A stretch of 64,000 bases of DNA from Aridibacter sp. (GTDB lineage: Bacteria > Acidobacteriota > Blastocatellia > Pyrinomonadales > Pyrinomonadaceae): the NCBI GenBank assembly GCA_035513035.1, contig DATKCW010000011.1, forward strand, positions 28,893 through 92,892, in the 5' to 3' direction. Shown piece by piece: positions 2,893-61,804 of the stretch. Within the stretch, counting starts at the first letter, position 1. Every line of letters begins with the position of its first letter. The position numbers were made by a program, and so were the translations under genes. The notes beneath the pieces are model-generated. The model worked only from the letters and a program-made list of their open reading frames with translations, was not told where the DNA came from and did no database searches.

Positions 2893-3169
2893 TGGTCTCC
2901 TGAATTGAAGTTAGTGGTTCGGGATAGCCATAAACATATCCTCAAAGAACTTGTAGAAGCAAGAAAATTGTTACAAGCAAAAGCGTTATGGCCGGAAGGA
3001 CAAAACAGCCGGCGCATCCGGAATGCGCCTCGTCGTGCTCATACGCGGCATAGAAGACCTCCGTGTCGTCTTCGGGATCGGGTTCTTCGAACATGTTCTG
3101 ATAATGGCTCTGTGAGGAGCAAAACGGAAGTGCGGGAAACGGACCGGGGGAATCCTCTTTGTACGACAA

Positions 3170-3410
3170 GCTTCAGCTTGTCGCCCGCACCGTGAGGACT
3201 GAGAGAAAAGGACTGAGGACTGAGACCGAGTGCGAGCGGCTCTGACCGTGTTGACTGGAGCGCAGGCAGCCTTGCCTGCACTGAGCGCGAAGCGCGAACT
3301 GTACGATAAGCTTCAGCTTGTCGCCCGCTGAAAGGCGGGAAAGAACGGGAAACAGATTATCACAGATGGATTTTGGGATTCGTGTTTTCTGTGTCCTTTC
3401 TTGATTCCGT
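3170..3410 (+). repeat. ~240 bp composite repeat (copy with 55 bp internal insertion)
   Basis: Collinear with 12308-12520: TGTACGAYAAGCTTCAGCTTGTCGCCCGC, GAGGACTGAGAGAAAAGGACTGAGGACTGA, CGAACTGTACGATAAGCTTCAGCTTGTCGCCCGC, GATGGATTTTGGGAT, CTGTGTCCTTT. Confidence 0.8.
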
Positions 3411-3436
3411 GCGATTCGGAGATATGATTAGCGGGT

Positions 3437-3531
3437 GCCGCCGCTACGCGGCTCAGGATCCCGGGGGCGCCGCTTCCCGTGGGTTCCGCTTCGCTCCACC
3501 CACGGCTAAAAGCAGGTCGCCCCTGCGGGGC
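3437..3531 (+). repeat. three-hairpin ~95 nt interspersed element (copy 1)
   Basis: GCCGC-TAC-GCGGC ... CCGTGGGT-N-ACCCACGG-CTAAAAGCA-GCCCC-TGC-GGGGC. Confidence 0.7.
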
Positions 3532-3667
3532 TCTTCCGGACTCCTGTCTCCTGACTTCTGAGTTCTTTAGGTTATGTCGCCTGCTTCGCAGGCTCGATCG
3601 TTTGCCCGGCATCCTCCACGTTCCGCTTCGCTCCACGTTGAGCTGGATGATGGCGCCTGCTTCGCAG

Positions 3668-3826
3668 ACTCGATAGACGCGACAGACCCGATAGACTCGA
3701 TAGACCCGACAGACCCGATAGACTCATTCCGTCGGCGCTTTTCGCTTCGCTCAATGCGGGCAGGCTGCCCGCGCTCCAGTCACCAGACCCGATAGTCTCG
3801 ATAGACTCCCGACTCAACGGACTCAC
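3668..3826 (-). repeat. nonamer minisatellite (inverted orientation) split by a 45 bp word
   Basis: GACTCGATAGACGCGACAGACCCGATAGAC... The interrupting word CGCTTCGCTCAATGCGGGCAGGCTGCCCGCGCTCCAGTC (3738-3782) recurs at 24558-24600 and, inverted, at 29948-29992 and 3246-3295. Confidence 0.75.
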
Positions 3827-4721: not shown

Positions 4722-5307
4722 TTCTCCACTTCTGGCGGTTGTCGAATTTGAACGCGCGGTGATAACGGGAAAGATGTCAACGGAGCAGGGAGCAGAGGCG
4801 TATGATACCGACATCCGCCGCGGGTGCCAAGGAAAAAAGAAGGACAAGGAACAACACGGATGGATCTTGGGATCCGTGTCGCGGCGAGAGTCGTGTTTTC
4901 CGGTTGTCCGATAAGCTTCAGCTTGTCGCCCGCCGTCAGGCGGGAACACGGGAAGAGACAGGATGGACAGGATAATCAGGATGATATCGCCGATGTTCAG
5001 AATGTCTCCGGGTAACCGGCAGCGTCAAAATTCAGAAGCGGTGATCCTGCCTAATCTGTCCATCTTGTTTCCTCTTCATTCTGTCATTAAAGAAGTCCCT
5101 GCGGTGTTATGCAGAAAAGACCGCCCGACGGGAGAACAGAGTCCGGCTTCGGCATCGCCGTAGGCAGACCGCGGACCCGGATTCCCGTCGGCGGAAGAAA
5201 CCAAGGACAAAGCAAATCACTGGTGTAACGGTCCCTAAAACATTTGAAGGGATTGGGATCCCGACCGGCTCACACGCGCCGGGCACAGGAAACGAACAGG
5301 AGAAACT

Positions 5308-6986: not shown

Positions 6987-8411
6987 ATGCAAAAGATAAC
7001 AAAAACCAATTTTATTCAGTACCTTAGTTGTCCGCGCGAGTTCTGGATGAAGTTCAACCATCCTGCCAAGCTCCCTTCGCCCACCCTTGATGAGCAGTTC
7101 CGTATGAAACAGGGTTACGAGGTAGAGAACGCGGTGCGGCGGCTTCTCACTCAGAGGGGAGACAGACCGTACGATTTTCAAAGGTTTGTCTTCGACGGTG
7201 ACCTTGCGGCAAGGATCGATGCCCTCGCTGAGAAACCGGACGGATCGCACGAAATTATCGAGGTGAAATCGATAAAGTCCATCCCCGAAGACGCTCCGGG
7301 CAGGACAAAGAAGCTGGAAGAATATATGTACGATCTGGCTTTCCAGCTTTACGTCGCGCGCAATTCGGGCCTGAACATCACCTCGGTTGCACTCGCAACC
7401 CTTAACCGTGACTTCGTGCTCGGCGACGAACTTGATCTTGAGCAGCTCATAGCGTTTGAAGACCACACGGAGGCCGTAGAAGTGCTGCAGCAGGATGTCG
7501 AATCGCTGATCAGCGCGGCGCGGGAGTATCTGATCACAGGTCCCGGCGATGACTTTGAGAACTTGTGCGGCGACAAACTGAAATGTGTTTACTTTGAAAA
7601 CTTTGTGCCCGGCCTGCCGCACCCGAACATCTTCAACCTGCCGAGGATAACCGAGAAGCGGCTTGATCCTCTTATTTCGCAAGGCATTCTGGCCATCAGC
7701 GACATCCCTCCGGACGCGTCGCTTACGGACAGTCAGTGGGATTGGGTCCGTTTCAAACTCTCTGAAGAAAAACAGATCGACAAGGAAGCTATCGACGAAG
7801 CGCTCGACTTGGAGTATCCTCTGTATTTCCTGGACTATGAGGCCGCAAATCCGGCGATCCCCGTGATCAAGGGCATGTCGCCATACCAGCAGATCACCTT
7901 CCAGTATTCGGTGCACATCCGAAATGCGCCCGGCGAAGAACCGGTGCCTTTCGGCTTCCTTTCCGACGGCAGCGACGAACCGACCAGAAGCGTCGCAGAG
8001 GAACTTTCCCGGGTCATCGGCGACACGGGTAATGTGGTCGTTTGGTTTGAGAGATTTGAGAAAGAAAGGAATGCGGAGATGGCCGCACTGTATCCGGAGT
8101 TCGAGGCCTTTATGACCTCGGTCAACGAACGCGTGTTCGATCTATACGAAGTATTCAACAAAGGACTTTACAAGGATCCGGGTATGGCGAACAACAAACT
8201 GAAGACGGTTCTGCCGACGCTTGTTCCCGAACTAAGTTATTCGGAACTGGACATCAGGAACGGCGGCGTGGCTTCGGTCAGATGGTTCGAGGATGTCTTT
8301 CGCGGAGACGACCAGGAGCGAAAGCGGCTGACGCTCGAGAGCCTCAGGGAATACTGCGCCCTCGATACGCTGGCGATGGTGAGGATAATGGATTACCTGG
8401 CGGCATTGTAA
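6987..8411 (+). CDS. DUF2779 domain protein (PD-(D/E)xK-like N part plus RNase H-like exonuclease part)
   Basis: ORF 6957..8411 trimmed to the first ATG (MQKITKTNFIQYLSCPREFW). YFLDYEAANPAIP...FQYSVH is typical of DUF2779. Confidence 0.7.
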   Translation: MQKITKTNFIQYLSCPREFWMKFNHPAKLPSPTLDEQFRMKQGYEVENAVRRLLTQRGDRPYDFQRFVFDGDLAARIDALAEKPDGSHEIIEVKSIKSIPEDAPGRTKKLEEYMYDLAFQLYVARNSGLNITSVALATLNRDFVLGDELDLEQLIAFEDHTEAVEVLQQDVESLISAAREYLITGPGDDFENLCGDKLKCVYFENFVPGLPHPNIFNLPRITEKRLDPLISQGILAISDIPPDASLTDSQWDWVRFKLSEEKQIDKEAIDEALDLEYPLYFLDYEAANPAIPVIKGMSPYQQITFQYSVHIRNAPGEEPVPFGFLSDGSDEPTRSVAEELSRVIGDTGNVVVWFERFEKERNAEMAALYPEFEAFMTSVNERVFDLYEVFNKGLYKDPGMANNKLKTVLPTLVPELSYSELDIRNGGVASVRWFEDVFRGDDQERKRLTLESLREYCALDTLAMVRIMDYLAAL

Positions 8412-8456
8412 AACGTCCGTCTTTTTTCGGAGCGACTCCGCTCTTCGTATATCATT

Positions 8457-8548
8457 CCACCGCTACGCGGCTCCTAATCAGTTTGGTCACCTTCCCCGGG
8501 GTTCCGCTTCGCTCCACCCACGGCAAAGGCAGGTCGCCCCTGCGGGGC
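8457..8548 (+). repeat. three-hairpin element (copy 2, degenerate hairpin 2)
   Basis: Same order of motifs. The 5-prime arm of hairpin 2 is altered (CCCCGGGGTT). Confidence 0.6.
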
Positions 8549-8587
8549 CCGCGACCTCTGACATTTGAAATTTGCGATCTGGAATCG

Positions 8588-8876
8588 GTCTCCAGTGTCC
8601 GGTCTCCGGTCTCCCGTCTCAGGTTATCGGTCTCCAGTCTCCGGTTTTCTGTCTTCTGACCCCGTATTTCCGTCTTGCCCGTCGCTTGCGCTCCGGTTTC
8701 CGATCGTGCCGCCGCTAACGCGGCTCAGGAATGTGGGGATCGGTCCCCGTGGGTTTCGCTTCGCTCCACCCACGGCTAAAGGCAGGTCGCCCCTTCGGGG
8801 CTTTTCCTGTCTCCTGTTTTCTGTCTTCTGATTTCTGACTCCTGACTTCTGACTCCTGTCTTCTGACTCCTGACTT
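8588..8876 (+). repeat. two heptamer runs flanking element copy 3
   Basis: GGTCTCC-type run 8588-8659 and TGACTCC/TGTCTTC-type run 8806-8876. Confidence 0.7.
8707..8801 (+). repeat. three-hairpin element (copy 3)
   Basis: Near-identical to copy 4, including ~30 bp of upstream leader (8676-8706). Confidence 0.75.
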
Positions 8877-9030
8877 TACGCGCAGATATGGACCGACGCT
8901 CTCGACGCGCTCTTCTCAAAACTGAACAACCGCGGCGACAACATCGTCGAAGGTCCGGTCAGGCGAGAATACGGATCTGCGGAGATCATGATCGACGACT
9001 TGAACGGCTTCCGGATCGCACTCTGTGATC
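8874..9030 (+). pseudogene. C-terminal remnant of a VOC (glyoxalase/bleomycin-resistance) family gene
   Basis: The frame opens only after a TGA inside the repeat array. It encodes AQIWTDALDALFSKLNNRGDNIVEGPVRREYGSAEIMIDDLNGFRIALCD, the last beta-alpha-beta-beta-beta module of VOC proteins. No N-terminal half and no start codon. Confidence 0.45.
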
Positions 9031-9069
9031 GACCGCTGCAAGCGGCTACTATCCCGACTTCGATCCGGG

Positions 9070-12307: not shown

Positions 12308-12520
12308 ATGTACGATAAGTTTCAGCTTTTCGCCCGCGCCGCGAGGACTGAGAGAAAAGGACTGAGGACTGACTCCGAGTGCGAAGCGCGAACTGTACGA
12401 TAAGCTTCAGCTTGTCGCCCGCCGCAAGGCGGGAACAGGGGCTGGTTAAACGGGAAGAAGGAAGGACACAGATAAACACGGATGGATTTTGGGATCGGTG
12501 TTAACCTGTGTCCTTTTTCT
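12308..12520 (+). repeat. ~210 bp composite repeat (copy without insertion)
   Basis: See 3170-3410. Confidence 0.8.
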
Positions 12521-12558
12521 TGCGGCCGATTCAAAGAGGTTCATCGAGGGTTGACGAG

Positions 12559-12700
12559 TATCAGTTGCCCCCCGCTTCAGCGGGGGGATGAAAGGGTCCA
12601 ACAATCCCCGGCCGACTTTAGCCGGCGATTTCGGGGCTAAAGCCCCGCAGTCCCTTGAATCAGCGAATGTCCCCCGGCTGAAGCCGGGGGCAACTGATAT
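12559..12700. repeat. ~140 bp multi-hairpin palindromic module
   Basis: Outer arms TATCAGTTGCCCCC / GGGGGCAACTGATA. Internal hairpins CCCCCCGC-TTCA-GCGGGGGG, CGGGGC-TAAA-GCCCCG and CCCCCGGC-TGAA-GCCGGGGG. Confidence 0.7.
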
Positions 12701-12909: not shown

Positions 12910-12943
12910 GTGATGCCCGTCGCTCGCGCTCCGGGTTCCGATC

Positions 12944-13039
12944 GTGCCGCCGCTACGCGGCTCAGGAATGTGGGGATCGGTCCCCGTGGGTTTCGCTTCG
13001 CTCCACCCACGGCTAAAAGCAGGTCGCCCTTGCGGGGCT
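12944..13039 (+). repeat. three-hairpin element (copy 4)
   Basis: TGCCGCCGCTACGCGGCTCAGGAATGTGGGGATCGGTCCCCGTGGGTTTCGCTTCGCTCCACCCACGGCTAAAAGCAGGTCGCCCTTGCGGGGC. Confidence 0.75.
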
Positions 13040-13043
13040 CTTC

Positions 13044-13160
13044 CGGTCTCCCGTCTCCCGTCTCCTGACTCCGGTCCCCGGTCTCCCGTCTCCGGTTTCC
13101 GGTCTCCGGACTCCGGTCCCCCGTCTCCGGTCCCCGGTCTCCCGTCTCCGGACTCCGATC
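13044..13160 (+). repeat. degenerate heptamer array (GTCTCCC/GTCTCCG/GTCCCCG)
   Basis: About 16 units directly after element copy 4. Confidence 0.75.
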
Positions 13161-13176
13161 CCTCAGTCTTTCCTTT

Positions 13177-14715: not shown

Positions 14716-15308
14716 TCAAAAGACCCTGTCTCCTGTCTCCTGTCTCCTGCCTCCTGTCTCCTCTGCCGCCGCTAACGCGGCTAAAGAATTATTTGCCGCC
14801 TTGACCGTGGGCTGCGCCTTCGGCTTGCCCACGGCTAAACTCACGTGTGCGCTACGCGGACGCCTGTCTCCTGTCTTCGGTCTTCTGTCTTCGGTCTTCT
14901 GTCTTCGGTCTCCTGTCTCCCGTCTCCTGCCTTCTGTCTCCTGTCTCCTGCCTTCTGTCTCCTCTGCCGCCGCTAACGCGGCTAAAGAATTATTTGCCGC
15001 CTCGACCGTGGGCTGCGCCTTCGGCTTGCCCACGCCTAAACTCACGTGTCCGCTACGCGGACGCCTGTCTCCTGTCTTCGGTCTTCGGTCTTCGGTCTTC
15101 TGTCTCCTGCCTTCTGTCTCCTGTCTCCTGTCTCCTCTGCCGCCGCTAACGCGGCTAAAGAATTATTTGCCGCCTTGACCGTGTGCGCCTTCGGCTTGCC
15201 CACGGCTAAACTCACGTGTGCGCTACGCGGACGCCTGTCTCCTGTCTTCTGTCTTCGGTCTTCGGTCTTCTGTCTTCGGTCTCCTGTCTCCCGTCTCCTG
15301 CCTTCTGA
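14716..15308 (+). repeat. higher-order tandem: (heptamer run + variant three-hairpin element) x3
   Basis: Element copies 5-7 start at 14764, 14965 and 15138 (periods ~201 and ~173 bp), separated by TGTCTCC/GGTCTTC heptamer runs. Lies in the divergent gap between the kinase and M50 protease genes. Confidence 0.8.
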
Positions 15309-15364
15309 CTTCCAATTCACAATTCACGATTTACGATTTACCCGCAAGATATTACTCTAGAGCA

Positions 15365-16456: not shown

Positions 16457-17119
16457 GGGCAGGACCTGTGCCTGCCCCCGCTATATCAACCGGACGCCCG
16501 GCCTCATCCGTAAGGCTCAATTATCAGCGAAAGATCCGGCTCGCCGTAGTGCTCCCATTTATCCCACCGGTCCACAAGATCCGACTTGACGGGATTGTCA
16601 CGGATGTACGAAACCGTTTCCCAAAGATCATCGATTGACCTGATTACGTGATCATAATATTGCCGCTGCCACAGTTTCCCCTTTTCCTTCTTCCACCATT
16701 CACGTGTAGTCATGCTCTTGAATTCCCCGCATATTTTCCCGAGGTTAGAGTCTGAATCCCCGATACCGATCAGGCCATGAAAATGATCGGGCCTAAAGGT
16801 GTATGAATAAAGGTTGAATTGACGCTTTTCTCGGAGCTGAAGCAGGAGCGATTTGCAGGCACGTGCAAAACTCTCATCGGCGAAGCACGGTTTTCGTTCT
16901 TTGGCGGCAATAGTTACGAAGTGTATTCCTGAGTCATAAGCGTCGGGAGAAAGTCGAATGCTGTTCTTTCGAAAGACACAGCCATCTATGTCGGGCATGG
17001 TGAGGATGCCTCCTTATTATTGGCTTGGTTTTTTTTTCAAAAAGGGGGCAGGCACAGGTCCTGCCCCTAAATAAACACTTATAAAATCAACGGAGGGCAG
17101 GCACGGGTCCTGCCCCTAC
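16453..17119 (-). mobile_element. RAYT locus: RAYT gene bracketed by inverted GTAG-REP hairpins
   Basis: GTAGGGGCAGGACCTGTGCCTGCCCC at 16453-16479 (+). Two copies in opposite orientation at 17044-17070 and 17092-17119. Confidence 0.75.
16504..16998 (-). CDS. REP-associated tyrosine transposase (RAYT, IS200/IS605-like Y1 HUH enzyme)
   Basis: 164 aa. HUH motif PDHFHGLI, catalytic-Tyr region QRQYYDHVIR, C-terminal YIRDNPVKSDLV. Visibly AT-richer than its neighbours and flanked by inverted REPs. Confidence 0.8.
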   Translation of the reverse strand: MPDIDGCVFRKNSIRLSPDAYDSGIHFVTIAAKERKPCFADESFARACKSLLLQLREKRQFNLYSYTFRPDHFHGLIGIGDSDSNLGKICGEFKSMTTREWWKKEKGKLWQRQYYDHVIRSIDDLWETVSYIRDNPVKSDLVDRWDKWEHYGEPDLSLIIEPYG

Positions 17120-20088: not shown

Positions 20089-20267
20089 CGGAAACCTCTC
20101 GGGACGGATTTCGGGCAGAGCCTTTTGAAAGAATCTGCGACCGGCAGCCTGGGGGCGGCTGTAACCCGGTGCGGGAAAGTAGCTTGCGTGTTCGGGGGAA
20201 GGTTAAACCGAGGGGAGGACGTTAGTCAATCGTGAATCGTAAATCGTGAATCGTGAATAGAGTTGGC

Positions 20268-20382
20268 GGAGTCTGTCGGGTCTGTCGAGTCTATCGAGTC
20301 TGTCGGGTCTGTCGAGTCCGTCAAGTCTATCGAATCTGTCGGGTCTGTCGTATCTGGCGGGACTGTAGTGTCTGTCGAGTCG
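20268..20382 (+). repeat. nonamer minisatellite (same family)
   Basis: GTCTGTCGGGTCTGTCGAGTCTATCGAGTCTGTCGGG... Confidence 0.8.
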
Positions 20383-20385
20383 CGA

Positions 20386-20481
20386 GTCCCGTAGGGACGA
20401 CCTGCTTTTAGCCGTGGGTGGAGCGAAGCGAAACCCACGGATCGAGTCGTCCAATCTCCGCGAGCCGCGTAGCGGCGGCAG
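20386..20481 (-). repeat. three-hairpin element (copy 8, only inverted copy)
   Basis: Reverse complement carries GCCGC-TAC-GCGGC, CCGTGGGT..ACCCACGG-CTAAAAGCA, GTCCC-TAC-GGGAC. Confidence 0.7.
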
Positions 20482-20740
20482 GCCGAATTCGCCGTGCTTA
20501 AGGATTGAACCGCAGAGAAGACAAGAAAAAAACAGGACACGGATCTTCACAGATTCTGAAAATAACTCTGGCGCTTGCCGAAAGAGTTATCCTGAAACAT
20601 CCGTGTTGATCCGTGTCCTGTCTCTTCTCTGCGCGCTCTCTGCGGTTGATCTTCTTATTCCCGTCGCTACCGCTCCGGGTACCGATTCCCTCTATTCACG
20701 ATTCACGATTTTCTATTCACGATTCACTATTTACGATCGA

Positions 20741-21719: not shown

Positions 21720-21744
21720 GTAGGGGCGGGACCTGTGCCCGCCC
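21720..21744 (+). repeat. GTAG-REP hairpin
   Basis: GTAGGGGCGGGACCTGTGCCCGCCC. Confidence 0.75.
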
Positions 21745-21745
21745 G

Positions 21746-21910
21746 GTGAGTCCGGCGAGTCGGGAGTCTATCGAGTCTGTTCAGTCTGTTCGGTCTGTCG
21801 AGTCTGTCGGGTCTATAGGGTCCGACGGGTCTGTCGGGTCTAACGGGTCCGTCGGGTCTATCGGGTCTATAGGATCTGACGGGTCTGTCGAGTCTGTCGG
21901 GTCTGTCGGG
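21746..21910 (+). repeat. nonamer minisatellite (same family)
   Basis: GAGTCTATCGAGTCTGTTCAGTCTGTTCGGTCTGTCGAGTCTGTCGGGTC..., immediately after the REP at 21720. Confidence 0.8.
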
Positions 21911-22007
21911 TGAAATGCCCCGAAGGGGCTAAGGATGGTAGCCCTGGTCAATGAAAAAAGCCGGAAGACTCGCGTCTCCCGGCTCGGATTGACTCGCTTT
22001 CCGTCTG

Positions 22008-24261: not shown

Positions 24262-24424
24262 AGATGTTCTCCTTATGCTCCGCAGGAAGCATCCTGGTTT
24301 TCGATAGGACGCATAGACGGATGGCTCCGGGGATCGGAGCTGAATCCCGTAAAGCGTCCTGTTTCGTTTTCCCCTTGGATGTTGAGAAATGATACACGAA
24401 TCCTGTCCAAGGGCAAGAGGATTT

Positions 24425-24705
24425 CGAGTCGGGAGCCTATCGAGTCTATCGAGTCGGGAGTCTTTAGGATCAGTTAGTCCGCGTAGCGGACCTTATAGAC
24501 TCTATGGACTCGATAGACTCGCCAGACTCTCCAGACCCGACACGTGACCTGGAATTTTTCGCTTCGCTCAATGCGGGCAGGCTGCCCGCGCTCCAGTCAG
24601 AAACTCGCGAACCGACGGACTCGACCATCTTTGCCAACACACCAAACTCAGCAAACTCACTGAACTCGGCAAACTCAGTACAACTCGCCAGACCCGACAG
24701 ACCCC
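24425..24705 (-). repeat. degenerate nonamer runs plus the same 45 bp word
   Basis: Read directly. Fills the gap between the NTF2 paralog and ggt. Confidence 0.65.
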
Positions 24706-24709
24706 AAAC

Positions 24710-26557: not shown

Positions 26558-26713
26558 AATGAGTTCCTAGACTTGGTTAGAAGGCGCCTTGGACCGCGGG
26601 CGACCCGCCCGCAAGTCCGAGTCATGAGTAATGAGTGATGAGTGACGAGGAAAGCCATTCGATTCGATCGTCCGAAGGAAATTCAATGCCGCGGGCGACC
26701 CGCCCGCATCTGC

Positions 26714-26808
26714 GTCGCCGCTACGCGGCTCGGAATAATATTTTTCGCCTAACCTGGGGCTGCGCCTTCGGCTTGCCCCGGGTTACCATCCGTAGCCGCT
26801 CCGCGGCA
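26714..26808 (+). repeat. three-hairpin element (copy 9)
   Basis: Hairpin 2 is CCTGGGGC..GCCCCGGG; hairpin 3 is GCCGC-TCC-GCGGC. Confidence 0.65.
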
Positions 26809-26936
26809 TTTCTTTGGCTAGTGGTCAATGGTCATTGGTCAATGTTTTTGCCCGTCGCTACCGCTCCGGGTACCGATTTATGCCGTCCGCTTCGCGGACT
26901 GAAGAACTCACCGAACCCCCTGACATTTTTTTTCAT

Positions 26937-27034
26937 GCCGCCGCTAAAGCGGCTCCGTATCCGTGTCTCCCTATCCCCGTGGGTTGCGCCCTTCGGGCTT
27001 ACCCACGGCTAAAAGCAGGTCGTCGCTTCGCGAC
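26937..27034 (+). repeat. three-hairpin element (copy 10)
   Basis: GCCGC-TAAA-GCGGC, CCGTGGGT..ACCCACGG-CTAAAAGCA, GTCGC-TTC-GCGAC. Confidence 0.7.
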
Positions 27035-27088
27035 TCAACAGACCGAACAGACTGAATAGACTCAATCGACTGAATAGACTGACCAGAC

Positions 27089-28270: not shown

Positions 28271-28497
28271 ATTCGTTAGTGCTGAGTACTGAGAGATGAG
28301 TACTGAGCGTCGAGAAGACACGTTCGGAGTGCAAGCTTCAGCTTGAATCACGTCGCGTTGCGCGGGCAAAAGTCGCGAATGCGGCCTTCCAGGGTGTCGA
28401 CTCAAGCGCCCGTTTAGAGCCGCGCTTCGCGCTGCCCTGGCCGCGCGAAGCGCGGCTTAATCGATGTCCCGTCGCTTTTACTCCGGGTATCGTTGTG

Positions 28498-28595
28498 TCG
28501 CCGCAAACGCGGCTCCGGTCGACGGGGGCGCCCCCCGGTGGGTTCCGCCTTCGGCTTCACCCACGGCTAAAGGCATCTGTCCGCTTCGCGGACGC
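28498..28595 (+). repeat. three-hairpin element (copy 11, inside the tdh-kbl spacer)
   Basis: GCCGC-AAAC-GCGGC, GGTGGGTT..CACCCACGG-CTAAAGGCA, GTCCGC-TTC-GCGGAC. Confidence 0.7.
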
Positions 28596-28765
28596 GAACC
28601 CTAGCTCCTGACTTCTGACTTCTCCAAGTAGCCTCCCTGACGGTCGGGCTTCGGACACGTGCTGACTTCTGTTTTCTGACTTCTCTAAGTAGCCCTCCCA
28701 AGGGTCGGGCCGCGGTCACGTGCTGACTCCTGACTTCCGACTCCTGACTTCTGACTTCTCATGGA
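28596..28765 (+). repeat. heptamer runs plus GTAGCC..GGACACG words in the tdh-kbl spacer
   Basis: CTGACTTCTGACTTCTCCAAGTAGCCTCCCTGACGGTCGGGCTTCGGACACGTGCTGACTTCTG..., duplicated in tandem. Confidence 0.7.
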
Positions 28766-28801
28766 ACCTGGAACTTGGAACCTTGAACAGCAGCGAAGCT
28801 G

Positions 28802-29833: not shown

Positions 29834-29880
29834 AGATTTAACGAGATGTCTTCGGTAGAGCAATGATATGAGAGGGCGGG

Positions 29881-30036
29881 AAGTCTGTCGAGTCGATTCA
29901 GTCCGTCGAGTCTATCGGGTCTGTCGAGTCTGTCGGGTCGAGCGTTGTCGACTGGAGCGCGGGAAGCCTGCCCGCATTGAGCGAAGCGAACCGCGAACAT
30001 GGACCGTGATTTATTCGGGTCTGTCGGGTCTGTCGT
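29881..30036 (+). repeat. nonamer runs flanking the 45 bp word
   Basis: 29881-29940 and 30016-30036 are nonamers. 29948-29992 is GACTGGAGCGCGGGAAGCCTGCCCGCATTGAGCGAAGCG. Confidence 0.7.
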
Positions 30037-32891: not shown

Positions 32892-34049
32892 ATGAACTTC
32901 AGTGAATTGGGACTGAATGACGCGCTTCTGCGCCGATGTGAATCCCAAAACTTTACAACGCCGACGCCGATCCAGGCTAAGGCGATCCCTTTGGTAAAAG
33001 AGGGAATTGACCTAATAGCCTGTGCCGAGACCGGCACCGGCAAGACGGCGGCATTCCTGCTGCCAGTCCTTGACGCGATGATCCGCGAGCGTCGGCCAGG
33101 AGTAAACCTCCTTGTTGTAGCACCTACTCGCGAACTCGCGATGCAGATAGAGAAGGACTACCTTCTTTTTGCACCCAAGAACTTCAAGAGCGTCTGCCTG
33201 ATCGGCGGCACGAATATAAATAAACAAACGAATAAGCTTCGAAGCGGCGTGAGCACAGTAATTGCGACGCCCGGAAGGTTAATCGACCACGTTGAACGCG
33301 GAAACGTTGACCTTCGGACGACACGAACGCTTGTTCTCGACGAAGCGGACCGGATGCTCGACATGGGCTTCCTTCCGCAAATACGTAAGATCCTGGGGTT
33401 CCTGCCGGCTGAACGGCAGAATCTCCTATTTTCGGCTACGATGCCGGATTCCGTGAAGGGCCTGGCCTACTCGATGATGGAAGATCCGGAATTCGTTGAG
33501 GCAAGCCCGAGGAACAAACCCCCGCGGACGATCGAAGAGATCGCCTACACGGTGCCGGGAAATTCCAAGATCGCATTGCTCCTGGACCTCCTGGAGAACG
33601 GGGAGCTCGAGAAGGTCATTATCTTCACCGCGACCAAGCGGGGAGCTGACAGGCTCGCTCATATCCTCAACGCAAGGGAGCTAAACGCCGGGATAATCCA
33701 TTCCGACAGGACCCAGTCCCAGAGGGAAAGGGAGCTGCAGGATTTCAAGGCCGGAAAGAAACAGGTGCTGGTCGCGACGGACATTGCAAGCCGCGGTATC
33801 GATATCGATTCCGTGACCCACGTGGTGAATTACGACGTTCCCTCGCCACCTGAAGATTATGTTCACAGGGTCGGCAGGACCGGACGGGCGGGCCGGCTCG
33901 GGCAGGCGATCACTCTCGTGACCCCGATCGAGGAGCTCGCGATGCGCAGCATCGAGATGCTCACGGAAAAGAAGATCGAACGGATCGAGCATCCCGAATT
34001 TGGCCCGAAAGCGATTCGGGAAAGAAAGCTGATCGCTCTTGCGGCGTAG
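32892..34049 (+). CDS. DEAD-box ATP-dependent RNA helicase
   Basis: Trimmed to MNFSELGLNDAL. Q motif TPIQ, AETGTGKT, DEAD, SAT, HRVGRTGRAG. Confidence 0.9.
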   Translation: MNFSELGLNDALLRRCESQNFTTPTPIQAKAIPLVKEGIDLIACAETGTGKTAAFLLPVLDAMIRERRPGVNLLVVAPTRELAMQIEKDYLLFAPKNFKSVCLIGGTNINKQTNKLRSGVSTVIATPGRLIDHVERGNVDLRTTRTLVLDEADRMLDMGFLPQIRKILGFLPAERQNLLFSATMPDSVKGLAYSMMEDPEFVEASPRNKPPRTIEEIAYTVPGNSKIALLLDLLENGELEKVIIFTATKRGADRLAHILNARELNAGIIHSDRTQSQRERELQDFKAGKKQVLVATDIASRGIDIDSVTHVVNYDVPSPPEDYVHRVGRTGRAGRLGQAITLVTPIEELAMRSIEMLTEKKIERIEHPEFGPKAIRERKLIALAA

Positions 34050-34071
34050 AAGGCGGTCTTTTCAGTCTTTC

Positions 34072-34303
34072 GGGTCTGTCGGGTCTGTCGGGTCTGTCGG
34101 GTCTGTTGAGTCTGTCGGGTCTGTTGAGTCTGTCGGGTCTGTCGGGTCTGTTGAGTCTATCGGGTCTGTCGGGTCTGTTGAGTCTATCGGGTCTGTTGGG
34201 TCTGTTGAGTCTGTCGGGTCTGTTGAGTCTGTCGGGTCTGTTGAGTCTATCGGGTCTGTTGAGTCTGTTGAGTCTGTCGGGTCTGTTGAGTCTATCGGGT
34301 CTG
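34072..34303 (+). repeat. nonamer minisatellite, ~26 units (GGGTCTGTC/GAGTCTGTT/GAGTCTATC)
   Basis: Starts 23 bp after the helicase stop. Open in all frames, which generates spurious ORFs on both strands. Confidence 0.85.
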
Positions 34304-34593
34304 ACAGCCCGCGAAGCGGGCGACATATAACAGCTCCACGTGAAGCGAAGCGGAACGTGGAGAATGTCGTGAGACGAGTCTCAGCCTGCGAAGCAGGCGG
34401 CATAGGCCTGCTCCACGTGAAGCAAAGCGGAACGTGGAGTCTCGGTACGCAGGGTTTGTTCACCTGCGAGCCTACGCATTTGTTTGTGGGTCTTCGCGCA
34501 TATTTATTTTTCTACAGGTTTCCTCCACGTACTTGTGCGTGGTTCCTGCATCCCCGGCCAAAATGCGTTTTTGTGTTAAGGTATTAGCAGCTT

Positions 34594-38143: not shown

Positions 38144-38273
38144 CGCTCTCGCGGCTTCGCCGCCATGGACCGCGGGCACCCTGCCCGCAAGGCCCCCTCT
38201 GTTCATCAAGTCGCCTTTGACTGCGGACATCCTGCCCACACGGCTTCCTTGGTTTACCAAACCACAATGGATT

Positions 38274-38369
38274 CTCGGACGTTCCCGCGGCTTCGCCGCC
38301 TGTGTGTGCGGAATGGCTCTGCCTTTCCGGCGGGGTCCCAAAAAGATGCCTCGGGGCTCAGCCCCGGGG
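38274..38369 (+). repeat. ~100 bp composite word (GCGGC-TTC-GCCGC ... GTGCGGAATGGCTCTGCCTTTCCGG ... CCCCGGGG palindrome)
   Basis: Recurs at 40309-40409 (same orientation) and partially at 43553-43600. Confidence 0.75.
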
Positions 38370-40260: not shown

Positions 40261-40518
40261 TCGCCGGCGGGGCGAGGTGCGATAGGCTTCAGCCTTTCGG
40301 CAAGGACTCTCTGACGTTCCCGCGGCTTCGCCGCGTTGATGTGCGGAAAGGCTCTGCCTTTCCGGCGGAGTCCCCCAAAAAGAGATTCCCCGGGGCTAAG
40401 CCCCGGGGAAGGAAATTGAAATACGCGCCTCGGTAAGCCGGAGGCTTACCGCACAGCCCGGCGGCATAGCCGCAAAGCATTACCGGGTTCAGTTCAGCCT
40501 ACCGGTTTATTCACTGCT

Positions 40519-40629
40519 GAGGCGCGAAGTAAGATCGGTACGTTTGCTGATTCGGATCAGCGCCATCGGCGCTGCTGGTCTGTAGAATCGCGGAACCTGA
40601 AGGGACCTTTGGCCGCTTCAGCGGCGACA
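40519..40629 (+). repeat. 111 bp direct repeat, left copy
   Basis: GAGGCGCGAAGTAAGATCGGTACGTTTGCTGATTCGGATCAGCGCC...GCCGCTTCAGCGGCGACA, with 4 mismatches to 43788-43898. Confidence 0.85.
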
Positions 40630-40656
40630 GGATCCTCGCGAGAGCGCCCAAGCTGA

Positions 40657-43307: not shown

Positions 43308-43787
43308 CTCGTCGTTTTCGGACCCATCGTCCGATCTTAAAATTTAGACTTCTTGATTGGAACCAGACGTCACGATTATAGACACAACGAGAACGGAGAC
43401 AAAACTTTTTGCCCGCAGCCGCCGCATACTTCCGGCTTACAGATCAACGTTCAAAGAGGCCGATCGAAAACCAGAGCGTGAGAAAAGGCGCCTACGGTTC
43501 ACGGCCGAGGCACGGTACGAATCAGCTTGGGTGTGAGGATACTATGCCGATCCGGCGGCTTCGCCGGCCGGATGTGCGGAATGGCTTTGCCTTTCTGGCC
43601 GAGCTTTCAGAAGAAACCCGGATGCCGATTTGAAGATCTTGCGGCTTCGCCGTCTTGGACCGCGGGCAACCTGCCCGCAAGGTCTTCAAAAGTTGAGCCC
43701 TCCGCAAGTCTCTTCCTCTGTCCTCGCGGCATAGCCGCAAGGCATTGCCGGGCTCAGTCTGTCGAGTTTTTTCACCGCAGAGGCGCT

Positions 43788-43898
43788 GAGGCGCGAAGTA
43801 AGATCGGTACGTTTGCTGATTCGGATCAGCGCCGTCGGCGCGGCAGGTCTGTAGAATCGCGGAACCTGAAGGAACCTTTGGCCGCTTCAGCGGCGACA
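43788..43898 (+). repeat. 111 bp direct repeat, right copy
   Basis: See the left copy. Together they bracket the VWA-TPR gene. Confidence 0.85.
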
Positions 43899-43969
43899 CG
43901 TTGCGGGCGGGTCGCCCGCGGTCCATAGTCGGCGCAAACTGATGTTCGCGGTACCTCGACAGGACAGCC

Positions 43970-54242: not shown

Positions 54243-54536
54243 GCGGGAAGCAGTGAGCAGTGAGCGGTGAGCAGTAAGTAGGTAGGGGCGTAGATCAGGA
54301 CTGAGAGGGAAGGACTGAGGACTGAGCGTCGTGCATCAGGTATCATGTGTCGAGTACCTGCCAGCATTCGTGACCCGAAGAGTCAAAGCGAACCATCGCG
54401 TAGCGATGCCGTAACTTAGCCGCGGGCTTCAGCCCACGGAACTTCTGTAAAGGTTCTTCCGCCTGTTCCCGTGGCCTGAAGGCCACGGGTAAGGTAATTG
54501 TGTCGCTGACGCGACGCGTTGCAGACCGAATACTGA

Positions 54537-58020: not shown

Positions 58021-58233
58021 AGTTAATCAAGATTACCTTATTCGAGTCTCTTGGAGGCCTTCGGACCGCGCACCCCGCCCGCATAGTGAGTACTGAGACG
58101 AAAGTACTGAGTACTGAGCCGGATCGCAAACTACTCGAACCGCAATGTACGATAAGCTTCAGCTTGTCGCCCGCCGCCAGGCGGGAACGGAAGTCGGACA
58201 CCTGGACCGCGGGCGGCCCGCCTGTATTTTCTT

Positions 58234-59593: not shown

Positions 59594-59797
59594 AGGACTT
59601 TGTTCCTCAATTCCAAGTTTATGCCGTTCAGTTTGTTTCGCACGGTGCTCGCTTGTCAATGCTCGTCAACGCTACCGGAGTGCAAAAGAAGGTGAGCGAG
59701 GAAGATAAACCTGGGTGTTCAGAGTTCGGGAGTCAGTTAGCTGCTTCAAAGAATCAGACGCGGCAGAAGCTTGTACTCTTAACGCGTTTCACACATC

Positions 59798-59937
<140 letters not shown>

Positions 59938-59956
59938 GTGTTATAAATTATCGATT

Positions 59957-61804
59957 ATGAAACCCCTAAGGACTATCGTGCTCATCGCCGCGATTCTGAT
60001 TGCGGCGGTTCCGGCTCAATCTCAGCAGGCGGCCTCGAAGGCCGCGCCCGTCTTCGTCGACGGCGAGGCGCAGGTCGTCGAATCATTCTCCGACCCGAAG
60101 GACTGGATCATTCACGATCTGTGGGTGGAGACGGAATTCGATTCGGACGGGGACGGCAGGCTCGACCGAATGCACGTCAGCGTAACGCGTCCGAAACAGA
60201 CCGAAACGGATGGTCTGAAGCTACCAGTGGTCTATGAAAGCAGCCCTTATTACTCAGGTACGGCCGGATTCGTTCCGGGCCTGTTCTGGAACATACGGCA
60301 CAATCTTGGCGAGCCGGCACCTGAGCCAAGGGTGCATCCCGAGATCCTTAGGCGCGGCGAGCGTCCGGTGATCTCGAGGTCGCAGACCAGCGACTGGATC
60401 CCGCGCGGCTACATCGTCGTTCATTCGTCCTCGCCCGGCACCGGACTATCCGACGGGGCTCCGACGGTCGGCGGAGACAACGAATCGCTCGCCCCGAAGG
60501 CTGTCATCGAATGGCTTGCCGGCAAGGATAACGGTTATGCGACGCGAACCGGGTCCGAGAAGGTAATGGCCGCCTGGTCGACCGGAAAGATAGGAATGAC
60601 CGGAACTTCGTACAACGGCACGCTTCCCGTCGCGGCGGCCACGACGGGAGTGAAGGGTCTCGAGGCGATCATCCCGATAGCTCCGAACACTTCGTATTAC
60701 CACTATTACCGTTCGTACGGGCTTGTGCGAAATCCCGGCGGCTATCCGGGCGAGGATGTGGACGTTCTCTACGATTTCATACACAGCGGTGAAGAATCGA
60801 AGCGCGCCCGCAACAACGAGGTCGTGCGTGACAAGGAACTGGTCGCGAAAATGGACCGCATCACGGGGGACTACAACGAGTTCTGGGCAGGGCGTGATTA
60901 CCTGAACGATATGAAGCCTATGAAGGCGGCATTGCTTATGTCGCACGGCTTCAACGATTGGAACGTGATGCCCGAGCACAGCTACCGGATCTACAAGAAG
61001 GCGAAGGAGATGGGCCTGTCCGTGCAGATCTTCTATCACCAGGGCGGCCACGGCGGTCCACCGCCGATGACGTTGATGAACCGCTGGTTCACGCGTTATC
61101 TTCACGGAGTTCAGAACGGAGTAGAGAACGATCCGAAGGCGTGGATCGTTCGCGAGGACAAGGAGCCTTCGGAGCCGACCGCGTACCCCGATTACCCGCA
61201 TCCGGAGGCTTCGGACGTAGAGCTTCATCTTTCGAAGGGTTCTCCTTCCAGAGGCGGCCTGACGACGGGAACTGTTTCGCAACAGGGGACAGAAACGCTT
61301 GTGGACAATTTCTCGTTCGACGGCGAAGCGCTGGCGAAGGCAGAGTTTACGAACCACAGGCTGATCTATACCACTCCCGTGCTCAGGGAGCCGGTTCATA
61401 TCTCCGGAGTCGCGAAAATCAGGATCAGACTCGCTAGCAACAGGCCCGCGGCCAATCTCTCGGTCTGGCTGGTATCGCTCCCGTGGAACGAAGGCAGGCG
61501 CGCGAAGATCACCGACAACATCATCACGCGCGGTTGGGCTGACCCGCAGAACTACCGCTCACTTACGGAGAGCGAGCCGCTGGTGCCCGGACGTTTCTAC
61601 GAGATGACGTTCGAGCTTCAGCCCGACGACCAGGTGATCGCGGCCGGACAGCAGATCGGGCTGATGATCTTCTCGAGCGACAAGGACTTCACGCTTCATC
61701 CCGATCCCGGGACAGAGCTGACGGTCGATCTCGATGGGACGACGCTGACGCTTCCGGTGGTCGGAGGAACCACCGTGTTTGCGAGGGCCGCCTTGGGAAA
61801 TTGA
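59957..61804 (+). CDS. Xaa-Pro dipeptidyl-peptidase / CocE-NonD family hydrolase (S15)
   Basis: Signal peptide, GMTGTSYNGTL nucleophile motif, HGFNDWNV, 615 aa. Confidence 0.85.
   Translation: MKPLRTIVLIAAILIAAVPAQSQQAASKAAPVFVDGEAQVVESFSDPKDWIIHDLWVETEFDSDGDGRLDRMHVSVTRPKQTETDGLKLPVVYESSPYYSGTAGFVPGLFWNIRHNLGEPAPEPRVHPEILRRGERPVISRSQTSDWIPRGYIVVHSSSPGTGLSDGAPTVGGDNESLAPKAVIEWLAGKDNGYATRTGSEKVMAAWSTGKIGMTGTSYNGTLPVAAATTGVKGLEAIIPIAPNTSYYHYYRSYGLVRNPGGYPGEDVDVLYDFIHSGEESKRARNNEVVRDKELVAKMDRITGDYNEFWAGRDYLNDMKPMKAALLMSHGFNDWNVMPEHSYRIYKKAKEMGLSVQIFYHQGGHGGPPPMTLMNRWFTRYLHGVQNGVENDPKAWIVREDKEPSEPTAYPDYPHPEASDVELHLSKGSPSRGGLTTGTVSQQGTETLVDNFSFDGEALAKAEFTNHRLIYTTPVLREPVHISGVAKIRIRLASNRPAANLSVWLVSLPWNEGRRAKITDNIITRGWADPQNYRSLTESEPLVPGRFYEMTFELQPDDQVIAAGQQIGLMIFSSDKDFTLHPDPGTELTVDLDGTTLTLPVVGGTTVFARAALGN

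Follow-up and report, generated by a model that had tools for sequence, protein, structure and literature searches.

Three-hairpin intergenic repeats of an Aridibacter contig as probable end-repeat copies of an IS200-like Y1 transposase unit

A 64,000-nucleotide stretch of an Aridibacter sp. contig (DATKCW010000011.1; in the following, the window) contains repeated copies of an element of about 95 nt, in which three hairpins follow one another and the stems differ between copies without losing their pairing. The question raised by this locus is whether such variation reflects selection on a folded RNA or on single-stranded DNA, which the original prediction had left side by side. Selection on structure is supported, and DNA is the favoured option, since the element is found in other genomes as the inverted end repeats of a Y1 transposase gene, turns over between genomes, gave no conserved promoter and is unbiased in orientation outside the window; the evidence speaks neither for nor against a discrete RNA of about 100 nt. 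Each element of about 93-105 nt is probably an end-repeat copy of a small mobile or domesticated unit around an IS200-like HUH/Y1 transposase. The window copies are ordinary in kind. They are orphan repeats associated with a transposase, and they behave like repetitive extragenic palindromic (REP)/REPIN or miniature inverted-repeat transposable element (MITE)-type relatives of a single-strand-DNA transposase.

To define the copies, a covariance model (R1) was built from 91 diverse copies and run on the whole window with its filters switched off. R1 gives 11 matches at E<1e-9 with 48-73 bits; the next match has 33 bits and none other exceeds 34 bits. These are exactly the 11 sites and strands that had been proposed (Table 1). 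A 17-mer over the 3' arm of hairpin 2 (H2) and the tag behind it matches the window 8 times, compared to 0.09 matches by chance. The original reading of the sequence versions of hairpin 3 (H3) is correct, as is that of the closing pair of H2, which changes from T:A to C:G. The tag, described as an invariant CTAAA(A/G)GCA, fails in five copies: those at 14764, 14965 and 15138 read CTAAACTCA, the copy at 8457 is without the T, and at 26714 no tag is left. One 201-nt tandem duplication (14725-15296) holds three of the 11 copies, which are therefore not independent. The copies at 12941-13040 and 8703-8803 are alike even beyond their ends, in the D18 module upstream and the 7-mers downstream. All window copies are intergenic and GC-rich with stable hairpins, and the 11 copies lie within 30 kb, all between open reading frames (ORFs). 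Several of them, such as those in 8412-9069, lie where genes converge or at the 3' end of a gene. They occur as single arms and in tandem arrays, gene-less and without doublets.

The modules of the element belong together. The word C-GCCGC-loop-GCGGC-T, typical of hairpin 1 (H1), is found 10 times inside copies and never outside them in the window, and CCCACGGCTAA is found 8 times inside and never outside. As both occur only within copies and the module order is constant across phyla, the possibility set out beforehand, a loose concatenation of independent REP-like words, was rejected; in the window the modules never stand alone. In the 11 window copies 96% of the stem cells are paired, compared to 87% after shuffling (none of 500 shuffles reach the observed value) and 35-45% with the partners slid. 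Within the window, 6 of the 18 pairs carry double-sided changes; H2 and H3 contribute three each, and H1 contributes none. Among 150 model hits 95.5% of the cells are paired and 16 of the 18 pairs have changes on both sides; here again none of 500 shuffles reaches any of the measures and the slid controls are 34-58% paired. The structure-preserving variation is thus real and strong, both in the window and in the wider set. H1 and H3 are alike, each with a 5-bp stem and a triloop in a C...T frame and often with the same few bases in front.

Two further copies in the window, at 3571-3670 and 34306-34406, form a second subfamily. They keep the three-hairpin plan and the H2 apical insert TCCGCTTCGCT(C/T)C on different stems, so the loop is conserved while the stems differ. 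In the copy at 3571-3670(+), H2 reads CTCCACGT...ACGTTGAG and the apical insert TCCGCTTCGCTCC is the same as in the main subfamily.

We scanned a species-representative genome collection for a pattern of H1, a gap and the H2 3' arm with tag, in this order, and obtained at least 111 stretches. Among the matches listed, the order H1-H2-CTAA-H3 is found in Acidobacteriota (Acidobacteriaceae, Korobacteraceae, Pyrinomonadaceae, Aridibacter and Versatilivorator), Planctomycetota (Pirellulales and Lacipirellula limnantheis I41), Verrucomicrobiota (Opitutales), Victivallales and one Bacteroidales metagenome-assembled genome (MAG). All listed matches have an H3-type hairpin 5-9 nt downstream of the tag, and most of the listed copies outside the window have an H2 with a tetraloop. 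The type seen in the window, with an enlarged H2 apex, is also present in three Acidobacteriota MAGs (CP065003.1, an Aridibacter famidurans MAG and LA_ACB_2). A total of 170 near-full hits divides into 85 in inverted pairs and 85 singlets. Gene-less inverted doublets, a minus copy followed by a plus copy with a gap of 10-40 nt, are common. In the Pirellulales MAG SMAG_U2115 (loci L012, L013, L022, L052, L103 and L110) head-to-head doublets are conserved for about 25-30 nt past H3, up to an inverted CTACACA...TGTGTAG, so that the dispersed unit there is a larger composite of roughly 250 nt.

The evidence that ties the element to a transposase comes from such related loci. In two of them (L044 and L020) the gap of about 440 nt between inverted copies is filled exactly by an ORF of 145-146 amino acids (aa), with the repeats beginning 0-3 nt from its start and stop codons. 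This leaves no room for other transposon ends. Both ORFs match the Y1_Tnp family (Pfam: PF01797) at 73.3 and 65.0 bits (cut-off 23), and in the ORF of this type the HUH motif reads NHVH and the motif around the catalytic tyrosine reads RYIARQ. The solved structures nearest to the Y1 protein are the ISDra2 and IS608 transposases, and no structure of a REP-associated tyrosine transposase (RAYT) is among the PDB matches at E<=0.01. By tblastn over all fetched loci we detected five Y1 genes (L044, L020, L079, L033 of Opitutales and L011 of Pyrinomonadaceae). They come from Terriglobia, Blastocatellia and Opitutales MAGs, encode proteins of 145-153 aa with 35-82% identity to the L044 protein, and in these pattern-selected loci all five lie between a (-) and a (+) R1 hit with the H1 sides inward. 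The complete unit consists of two inverted copies that abut a Y1 gene for 145-153 aa, with the H1 ends facing the gene and the H3 ends outward. Gene-bearing units and gene-less copies of the same type are found in the same MAG, L020 with L007 and L101, and L079 with L002 and L088.

The same association is seen when the search starts from the protein. A profile of the five Y1 proteins led to 80 metagenome loci, chosen by protein only, with 38-63% identity. R1 hits flank the gene on both sides in the (-)/gene/(+) layout in 29 of these loci and on one side in 20, thus in 49 in total. We scanned 20 of the 31 R1-negative loci with the Rfam model of the Acido-Lenti-1 motif, and 11 of these 20 have a match at gathering score beside the Y1 gene. 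Eight of the 20 were scanned for inverted repeats, and arms were read in five loci (L135, L146, L148, L155 and L178). These arms have the same plan of H2, a CTA, CTG or CTT tag and H3 on wholly other stems, for example CCCGGCAC...GTGCCGGG-CTAA in L178. The full plan of H1, H2, tag and H3 was read in L178 and in L175, where the arms are 92 nt long and 96% complementary; overall the end inverted repeats measure about 60-93 nt. Across loci the stem sequences of the repeat vary together with the protein, and the plan is constant. All 12 of the 12 Y1 proteins that were read contain [DN]H[VIA]H, WQ and Y---Q--HH or a near-match to it (YIQHQRKRH in L033, YIAEQAEQH in L163). In about ten of the metagenome loci L113-L128 the distance from the upstream arm to the protein match is 54-55 nt instead of 0-3 nt, which could reflect an N-terminal extension or a 5' leader.

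Several points weigh against a transposase origin of the window copies. The window itself has no Y1 gene by tblastn. The NCBI model for IS200 (NF033573) gives borderline scores for the L044 and L020 proteins, 55.7 and 46.9 bits for a cut-off of 55, and REP_Tyr_transpos (NF047646) gives 18.5 and 17.4 bits for a cut-off of 80. About 20 of the 80 protein-selected loci either have no flanking copy by either model or were not checked further. The genome scan used a pattern with a fixed H1 stem and a fixed H2 3' arm. Loci selected with it are biased accordingly, and the cleanest, unbiased covariation is mainly that of H3 and of the protein-selected loci. Furthermore, the orthologous spacers in CP065003.1 are too diverged to provide clean filled and empty sites; they cannot be aligned, so no boundaries or target site are readable there.

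Besides the transposase, the element has a second relation, to the Acido-Lenti-1 motif (Rfam: RF01687). At gathering thresholds Rfam annotates only a tRNA and one Acido-Lenti-1 match in the window. This match, at 54394-54439(-), reads CCGTGGGC-TGAA-GCCCGCGG, CTAA, a linker and ATCGC-TAC-GCGAT, and its upstream hairpin is unlike H1. No three-hairpin copy in the window reaches the gathering score of 37 bits, and Acido-1 does not match the copies in the Rfam scan. A permissive RF01687 scan of 8400-8900 gives 16.8 bits for the copy at 8703-8803 (aligned over 8769-8802, that is H2 3' arm, tag, linker and H3) and 11.7 bits for the copy at 8451-8550. The low score of the former is due to its enlarged H2 loop, as the model expects another loop length. 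The suggestion to check the copies against Acido-Lenti-1 was sound. H2, tag and H3, which make up the outer two-thirds of the element, share the architecture of RF01687, an 8-bp hairpin, a GGCUA tag, a linker of about 12 nt and a 5-bp triloop hairpin ending in CU, which agrees with the seed alignment. Tetraloop copies score 41-59 bits on RF01687 in 7 of 20 scanned loci (L012, L018, L022, L033, L037, L059 and L114); the tetraloop copies of L044 and L020, among others, are below the cut-off. R1 unites the window copies with these tetraloop relatives. The differences are the H2 apex, which is 13-19 nt in the window copies compared to a tetraloop, and H1, which the Rfam motif does not include.

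Rfam labels Acido-Lenti-1 as 'Gene; sRNA' (small RNA) of unknown function. The RF01687 seed comprises 89 sequences, from Koribacter versatilis, Lentisphaera araneosa, Rhodopirellula baltica, Geobacter uraniireducens and metagenomes (PMC2864571). In the seed alignment of 2010 the plan is the same and the stems exist in many variants; numerous copies per genome and frequent tandem arrays can already be seen in it. Weinberg et al. 2010 considered the motif likely to be RNA, gave no function and reported only some proximity to group II introns (PMC2864571). Here, Acido-Lenti-1 is most likely the outer part of a transposase end repeat and not an sRNA.

The TnpA proteins of IS608 and ISDra2 and TnpA-REP of E. 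coli recognise hairpins in single-stranded DNA and cut beside them, which is established biochemistry. By analogy, the Y1 enzyme of the units described here would act on single-stranded DNA, recognise the hairpins by their shape and a few flanking bases, and cut and rejoin next to them. Candidate recognition features are the alike H1 and H3, with their 5-bp stem, triloop and C...T frame, and the longer H2 with its conserved 3' GG-CTA(A/T) tag. We infer that the Y1 enzyme mobilises the copies. Hints at the strand it uses are a C.A mismatch in H2 of one subfamily, which pairs as a G.T wobble on the opposite strand, and the tag, which on that strand resembles the GTAG foot of REPs. Variant 'master' copies would spread, their stems being free to change as long as they still pair. 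With recognition by shape, stems change if pairing is kept and covariation arises without any RNA function, and the stem covariation most likely reflects such hairpin recognition on DNA. Copies may also be transcribed as parts of neighbouring mRNAs and then have side effects like those of REPs.

The copies might instead serve the host as REP-like intergenic hairpins, by acting as barriers with a stabilising effect on mRNA 3' ends, as weak or bidirectional terminators or as sites for nucleoid proteins or gyrase, and be retained for this role regardless of origin. Their intergenic position, GC content and stability, and the location of several copies between convergent genes or at 3' ends, fit such roles, which have been hypothesised for REP elements (background in PMC3733652). 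The turnover of the copies speaks against it. The window segment 17333-26557 is syntenic with L064 (CP065003.1, 3,064,001-3,072,000), with genes at 75-86% nucleotide identity. The copy at 20384-20484(-) is absent from the orthologous spacer (L064 4875-5103), and conversely a copy at L064 2282-2385 is absent from window 24262-24709. In these two orthologous spacers, copies have been gained and lost between related genomes. Every intergenic spacer compared with L064 is remodelled past alignment, and therefore these repeat-rich spacers turn over very fast. The lack of an orientation preference relative to genes outside the window also speaks against it. The 10:1 excess of plus-strand copies is real in the window and does not hold in other genomes, where singlets are split 26 to 26 by local GC skew, so that the replication-strand bias expected for IS608-like insertion is not seen there; by gene strand the singlets outside the window are split 42 to 32. 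Relative to flanking ORFs the orientation is unbiased (32 opposite/opposite, 23 same/same, 18 convergent and 17 divergent), in a test with crude ORF calls in which 57 hits fell 'inside' spurious ORFs. The minus-strand bias of the neighbouring genes, to which attention had been drawn, thus has no general meaning. These genes are mutually unrelated (DUF2779, APH, M14 peptidase, GGT and aminotransferase), which argues against a gene-specific cis-regulator. We consider service to the host unlikely as the explanation of the family; as a side effect it can coexist with an origin as transposase end repeats.

A further alternative, which we consider quite unlikely, follows from the Rfam label: the copies would encode or belong to a structured RNA, selection would act on the fold of this RNA, and the transposase link would be secondary. 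Strong covariation in all three helices, the 2010 rating of the motif as likely RNA (PMC2864571) and two transcription signals would fit an RNA. The scans for sigma-70 promoters and intrinsic terminators covered eight copies and gave one promoter-like site, just upstream of the copy at 3432, and one terminator-like H3, in the copy at 8703. A terminator-like tail in only one of eight copies speaks against this explanation, and so does the 5' side, where no conserved sequence upstream of H1 was found across copies and hence no shared promoter. Copies are not kept at orthologous sites, and tandem arrays, inverted doublets and end repeats abutting a transposase gene are further points against an RNA. 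Moreover, an entire subfamily, 50 of 148 sequences, retains in H2 a C.A mismatch on the strand of the original prediction, and on the other strand this mismatch becomes a G.T wobble. Counting wobble-type pairs gives 70 A.C/C.A and 17 G.T, a hint at better folding of the reverse strand; it is a hint only, because 50 of the 70 stem from one column of one subfamily. Finally, it is highly improbable that a separate Y1 insertion sequence used inverted doublets already in place as its targets, as some insertion sequences do with REPs, and that the repeats are not the transposase's own ends: gene-less doublets with gaps of 10-40 nt are common and a gene inserted at their centre would give the observed layout, but the gene lies 0-3 nt from the repeats on both sides in L044, L020, L126 and L127, no space is left for the roughly 100 nt or more of IS200-type left and right ends, and the stem sequences change along with the protein across loci under a constant plan.

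Y1 genes flanked by dispersing inverted repeats are a kind already known, and what differs is the three-hairpin 93-nt unit together with a class-1-like protein with the motifs of subclass 1.2. One case are REP/REPIN sequences with RAYT (TnpA-REP) genes, also called REPtrons (Nunvar 2010; Bertels & Rainey 2011; Ton-Hoang 2012; summarised in PMC6006769). In both systems intergenic hairpin repeats occur singly, as inverted doublets and in clusters, inverted copies flank a Y1 HUH gene (here in related loci and not in the window), and a short tag lies at the foot of the hairpin, where the reverse complement of GG-CTAA/CTAC is TTAG/GTAG-CC, comparable to the GTAG foot of REPs. The element is however a module of about 93 nt with three hairpins, whereas a REP is a single palindrome of 20-40 nt. 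On the reverse strand its tag reads TTAG, ATAG, GTAG, TCAG or AAAG, compared to GT[AG]G in REPs. The proteins are IS200-like with class 1 motifs and Y---Q--HH, unlike the class 2 Y..NP of RAYTs.

Di Nocera et al. 2013 (PMC3733652) describe TIRtrons, in which a Y1 gene (TIRYT) is enclosed by long terminal inverted repeats that are dispersed as well. Long inverted repeats around a Y1 gene, found also as singles, dimers and clusters and including cases in Acidobacteria, are shared with our units. The acidobacterial aba 1552 and 3477, tsa 392, aca 645 and gma 794 listed there carry longer proteins of RAYT type with Y...NP(V). They were set apart from the proteins here (145-153 aa, Y---Q--HH) by inspection of the protein motifs. 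The proteins match TnpAY1 subclass 1.2 as judged by motifs only. Quentin et al. 2018 (PMC6006769) describe this subclass as being without REPs or typical IS200 end structures and as occurring mainly in Cyanobacteria and Bacteroidetes. The likeness covers [DN]H[VIA]H, WQ and YIxxQxxHH, with YIANQREHH here and YIKNQKEHH there (Table 1 of PMC6006769), and length, 145-153 aa compared to a median of 148 (PMC6006769). In contrast, the genes here lie between structured inverted repeats, and their sources are MAGs of Acidobacteriota and Verrucomicrobiota and many metagenome contigs from soil and peat. With IS200/IS605 the units share a transposase closest to the TnpA of IS608 and ISDra2 and hairpins as recognition elements. 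H1 and H3 of one copy are alike hairpins in direct orientation on one strand, comparable to the left-end and right-end hairpins of IS608. IS200/IS605 elements, whose gene-less derivatives are called PATEs, are without terminal inverted repeats and have unlike left and right ends with hairpins on one strand, whereas the ends here are inverted repeats of about 93 nt, and no tnpB gene is part of the unit. With regard to MITEs, gene-less inverted doublets exist elsewhere and the window copies are single arms; no target-site duplications were found, with no detailed search made.

More tentatively, and with limited confidence, we suggest that a REPtron-like system, so far unrecognised, might use Acido-Lenti-1 as its DNA recognition module. 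It would be built on TnpAY1 subclass 1.2 and occur in at least four or five phyla, and each arm of about 93 nt would be a minimal single-strand transposon substrate. By analogy with IS608, H1 and H3 in direct orientation would resemble left and right ends around a tagged, guide-like H2. If the arm were such a complete substrate, this would explain the dispersal and tandem arrays of single arms and not only of doublets. An orphan Rfam family would gain a testable identity, as a transposase end repeat rather than an sRNA, and a Y1 subclass previously without a known DNA substrate would be linked to a candidate three-hairpin one. Strong helix covariation in a multi-copy motif can come from hairpin recognition on DNA, which calls for caution in RNA-motif discovery pipelines. 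In our incomplete literature collection, no paper found that mentions Acido-Lenti-1, TnpAY1 or TIRtrons makes a link of Acido-Lenti-1 to either of the other two. For the annotation of this genome, the repeats explain a large share of its unusually repeat-rich intergenic DNA.

Table 1. Coordinates of the three-hairpin copies, their parts and other repeats in the window.
Feature	Coordinates	Strand	Details
Focal full copy	8703..8803	+	R1 73.0 bits; H1 GCCGC-TAAC-GCGGC, then T
H1 of focal copy	8711-8724	+	GCCGC-TAAC-GCGGC, T after
Spacer of focal copy	8726-8746	+	between H1 and H2
H2 of focal copy	8747-8775	+	CCGTGGGT...ACCCACGG, apical insert TTCGCTTCGCTCC
Tag CTAAA of focal copy	8776-8780	+	followed by linker 8781-8788
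H3 of focal copy	8789-8801	+	GCCCC-TTC-GGGGC, T after
Degenerate copy	8451..8550	+	R1 47.9 bits; H1 mismatch (CCACC...), H2 5' arm CCCCGGGG, tag without T
Full copy	3432..3533	+	R1 71.4 bits
Full copy, near relative of 8703-8803	12941..13040	+	R1 71.0 bits; repeat families D7, D10
Full copy, first of three in tandem duplication	14760..14862	+	R1 65.5 bits; tag CTAAACTCA; family D5
Second copy in tandem array	14961..15063	+	R1 60.9 bits
Third copy in tandem array	15134..15233	+	R1 55.1 bits; H2 5' arm minus 3 bases
Full copy, opposite orientation	20384..20484	-	R1 73.5 bits
Degenerate copy	26709..26809	+	R1 50.9 bits; H2 CCTGGGGC...GCCCCGGG, tag lost, H3 GCCGC-TCC-GCGGC
Full copy	26932..27036	+	R1 70.2 bits; 4-bp inner stem in H2 apex
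Full copy	28492..28594	+	R1 56.3 bits; 6-bp H3 GTCCGC-TTC-GCGGAC
Second-subfamily copy	3571..3670	+	R1 18.7 bits; H1 GCCTGC-TTC-GCAGGC-T, tag CTGG, H3 GCCTGC-TTC-GCAGAC-T
Second-subfamily copy	34306..34406	-	R1 25.2 bits; H2 CTCCACGT...ACGTGGAG, tag CTGT, H3 GCCCGC-TTC-GCGGGC-T
Canonical Acido-Lenti-1 match	54394..54439	-	RF01687 41.1 bits, cut-off 37; R1 33.4 bits over 54393-54491
D18 module	8673..8705	+	CCCGTCGCTnnCGCTCCGGnTnCCGAT, directly 5' of H1; family D18; within the interval of the original prediction
33-nt module (D18)	8673-8705, 12911-12943, 28463-28495, 20655-20687, 26846-26878		CCCGTCGCTnnCGCTCCGGGTnCCGAT
7-nt tandem repeats	8802-8875, 13041-13170, 14863-14960, 15064-15133, 15234-15330, 28600-28770, 59766-59978
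9-nt tandem arrays	3659-3727, 20226-20380, 21730-21920, 24425-24549, 29862-29950, 34002-34300
GTACGATAAGCTTCAGCTTGTCGCCCGC...GCGGG family	3160-3341, 4888-4946, 12309-12435, 58054-58187
GGGCGGGCACAGGTYCCGCCCCTAC hairpin family	3824, 17042, 17091, 23193, 23229, 54575, 63574
D11/D16 families	38235-38367, 40270-40406, 43503-43603; 40516-40640 and 43785-43909

Further repeats surround the copies. Tandem 7-nt repeats (CTGTCTC, CTGACTT and CCGGTCTC) directly follow H3 of most copies, and the same 7-mers are found after H3 in related genomes (L017, L021, L065, L070, L093 and L108). The 33-nt module D18 lies directly 5' of H1 in three copies and occurs alone twice in the window. In L086, L094 and L109 it is positioned after H3 and therefore looks like a linker of tandem arrays; D18 is outside the conserved core. 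It also has a loose likeness to a degenerate hairpin-plus-linker unit.

A 9-nt unit, GGTCTGTCG (complement CGACAGACC), forms long tandem arrays in many intergenic spacers on either strand. A composite repeat of about 140 nt with four GC-rich hairpins and the inverted boundary words CAGTTGCCCCCC...GGGGGCAACTGAT is present at 12553-12700 of the window and at about 2000-2150 of L064. The repeat family GTACGATAAGCTTCAGCTTGTCGCCCGC...GCGGG is combined with GGACTGAG 7-mers (families D13, D15 and D19). The 33-nt hairpin family GGGCGGGCACAGGTYCCGCCCCTAC has two members at 17045-17116 that score terminator-like. The multi-hairpin families D11 and D16 give weak R1 hits of 15-25 bits and are without the H2-tag plan, and the two members of the D16 pair are 93% identical.

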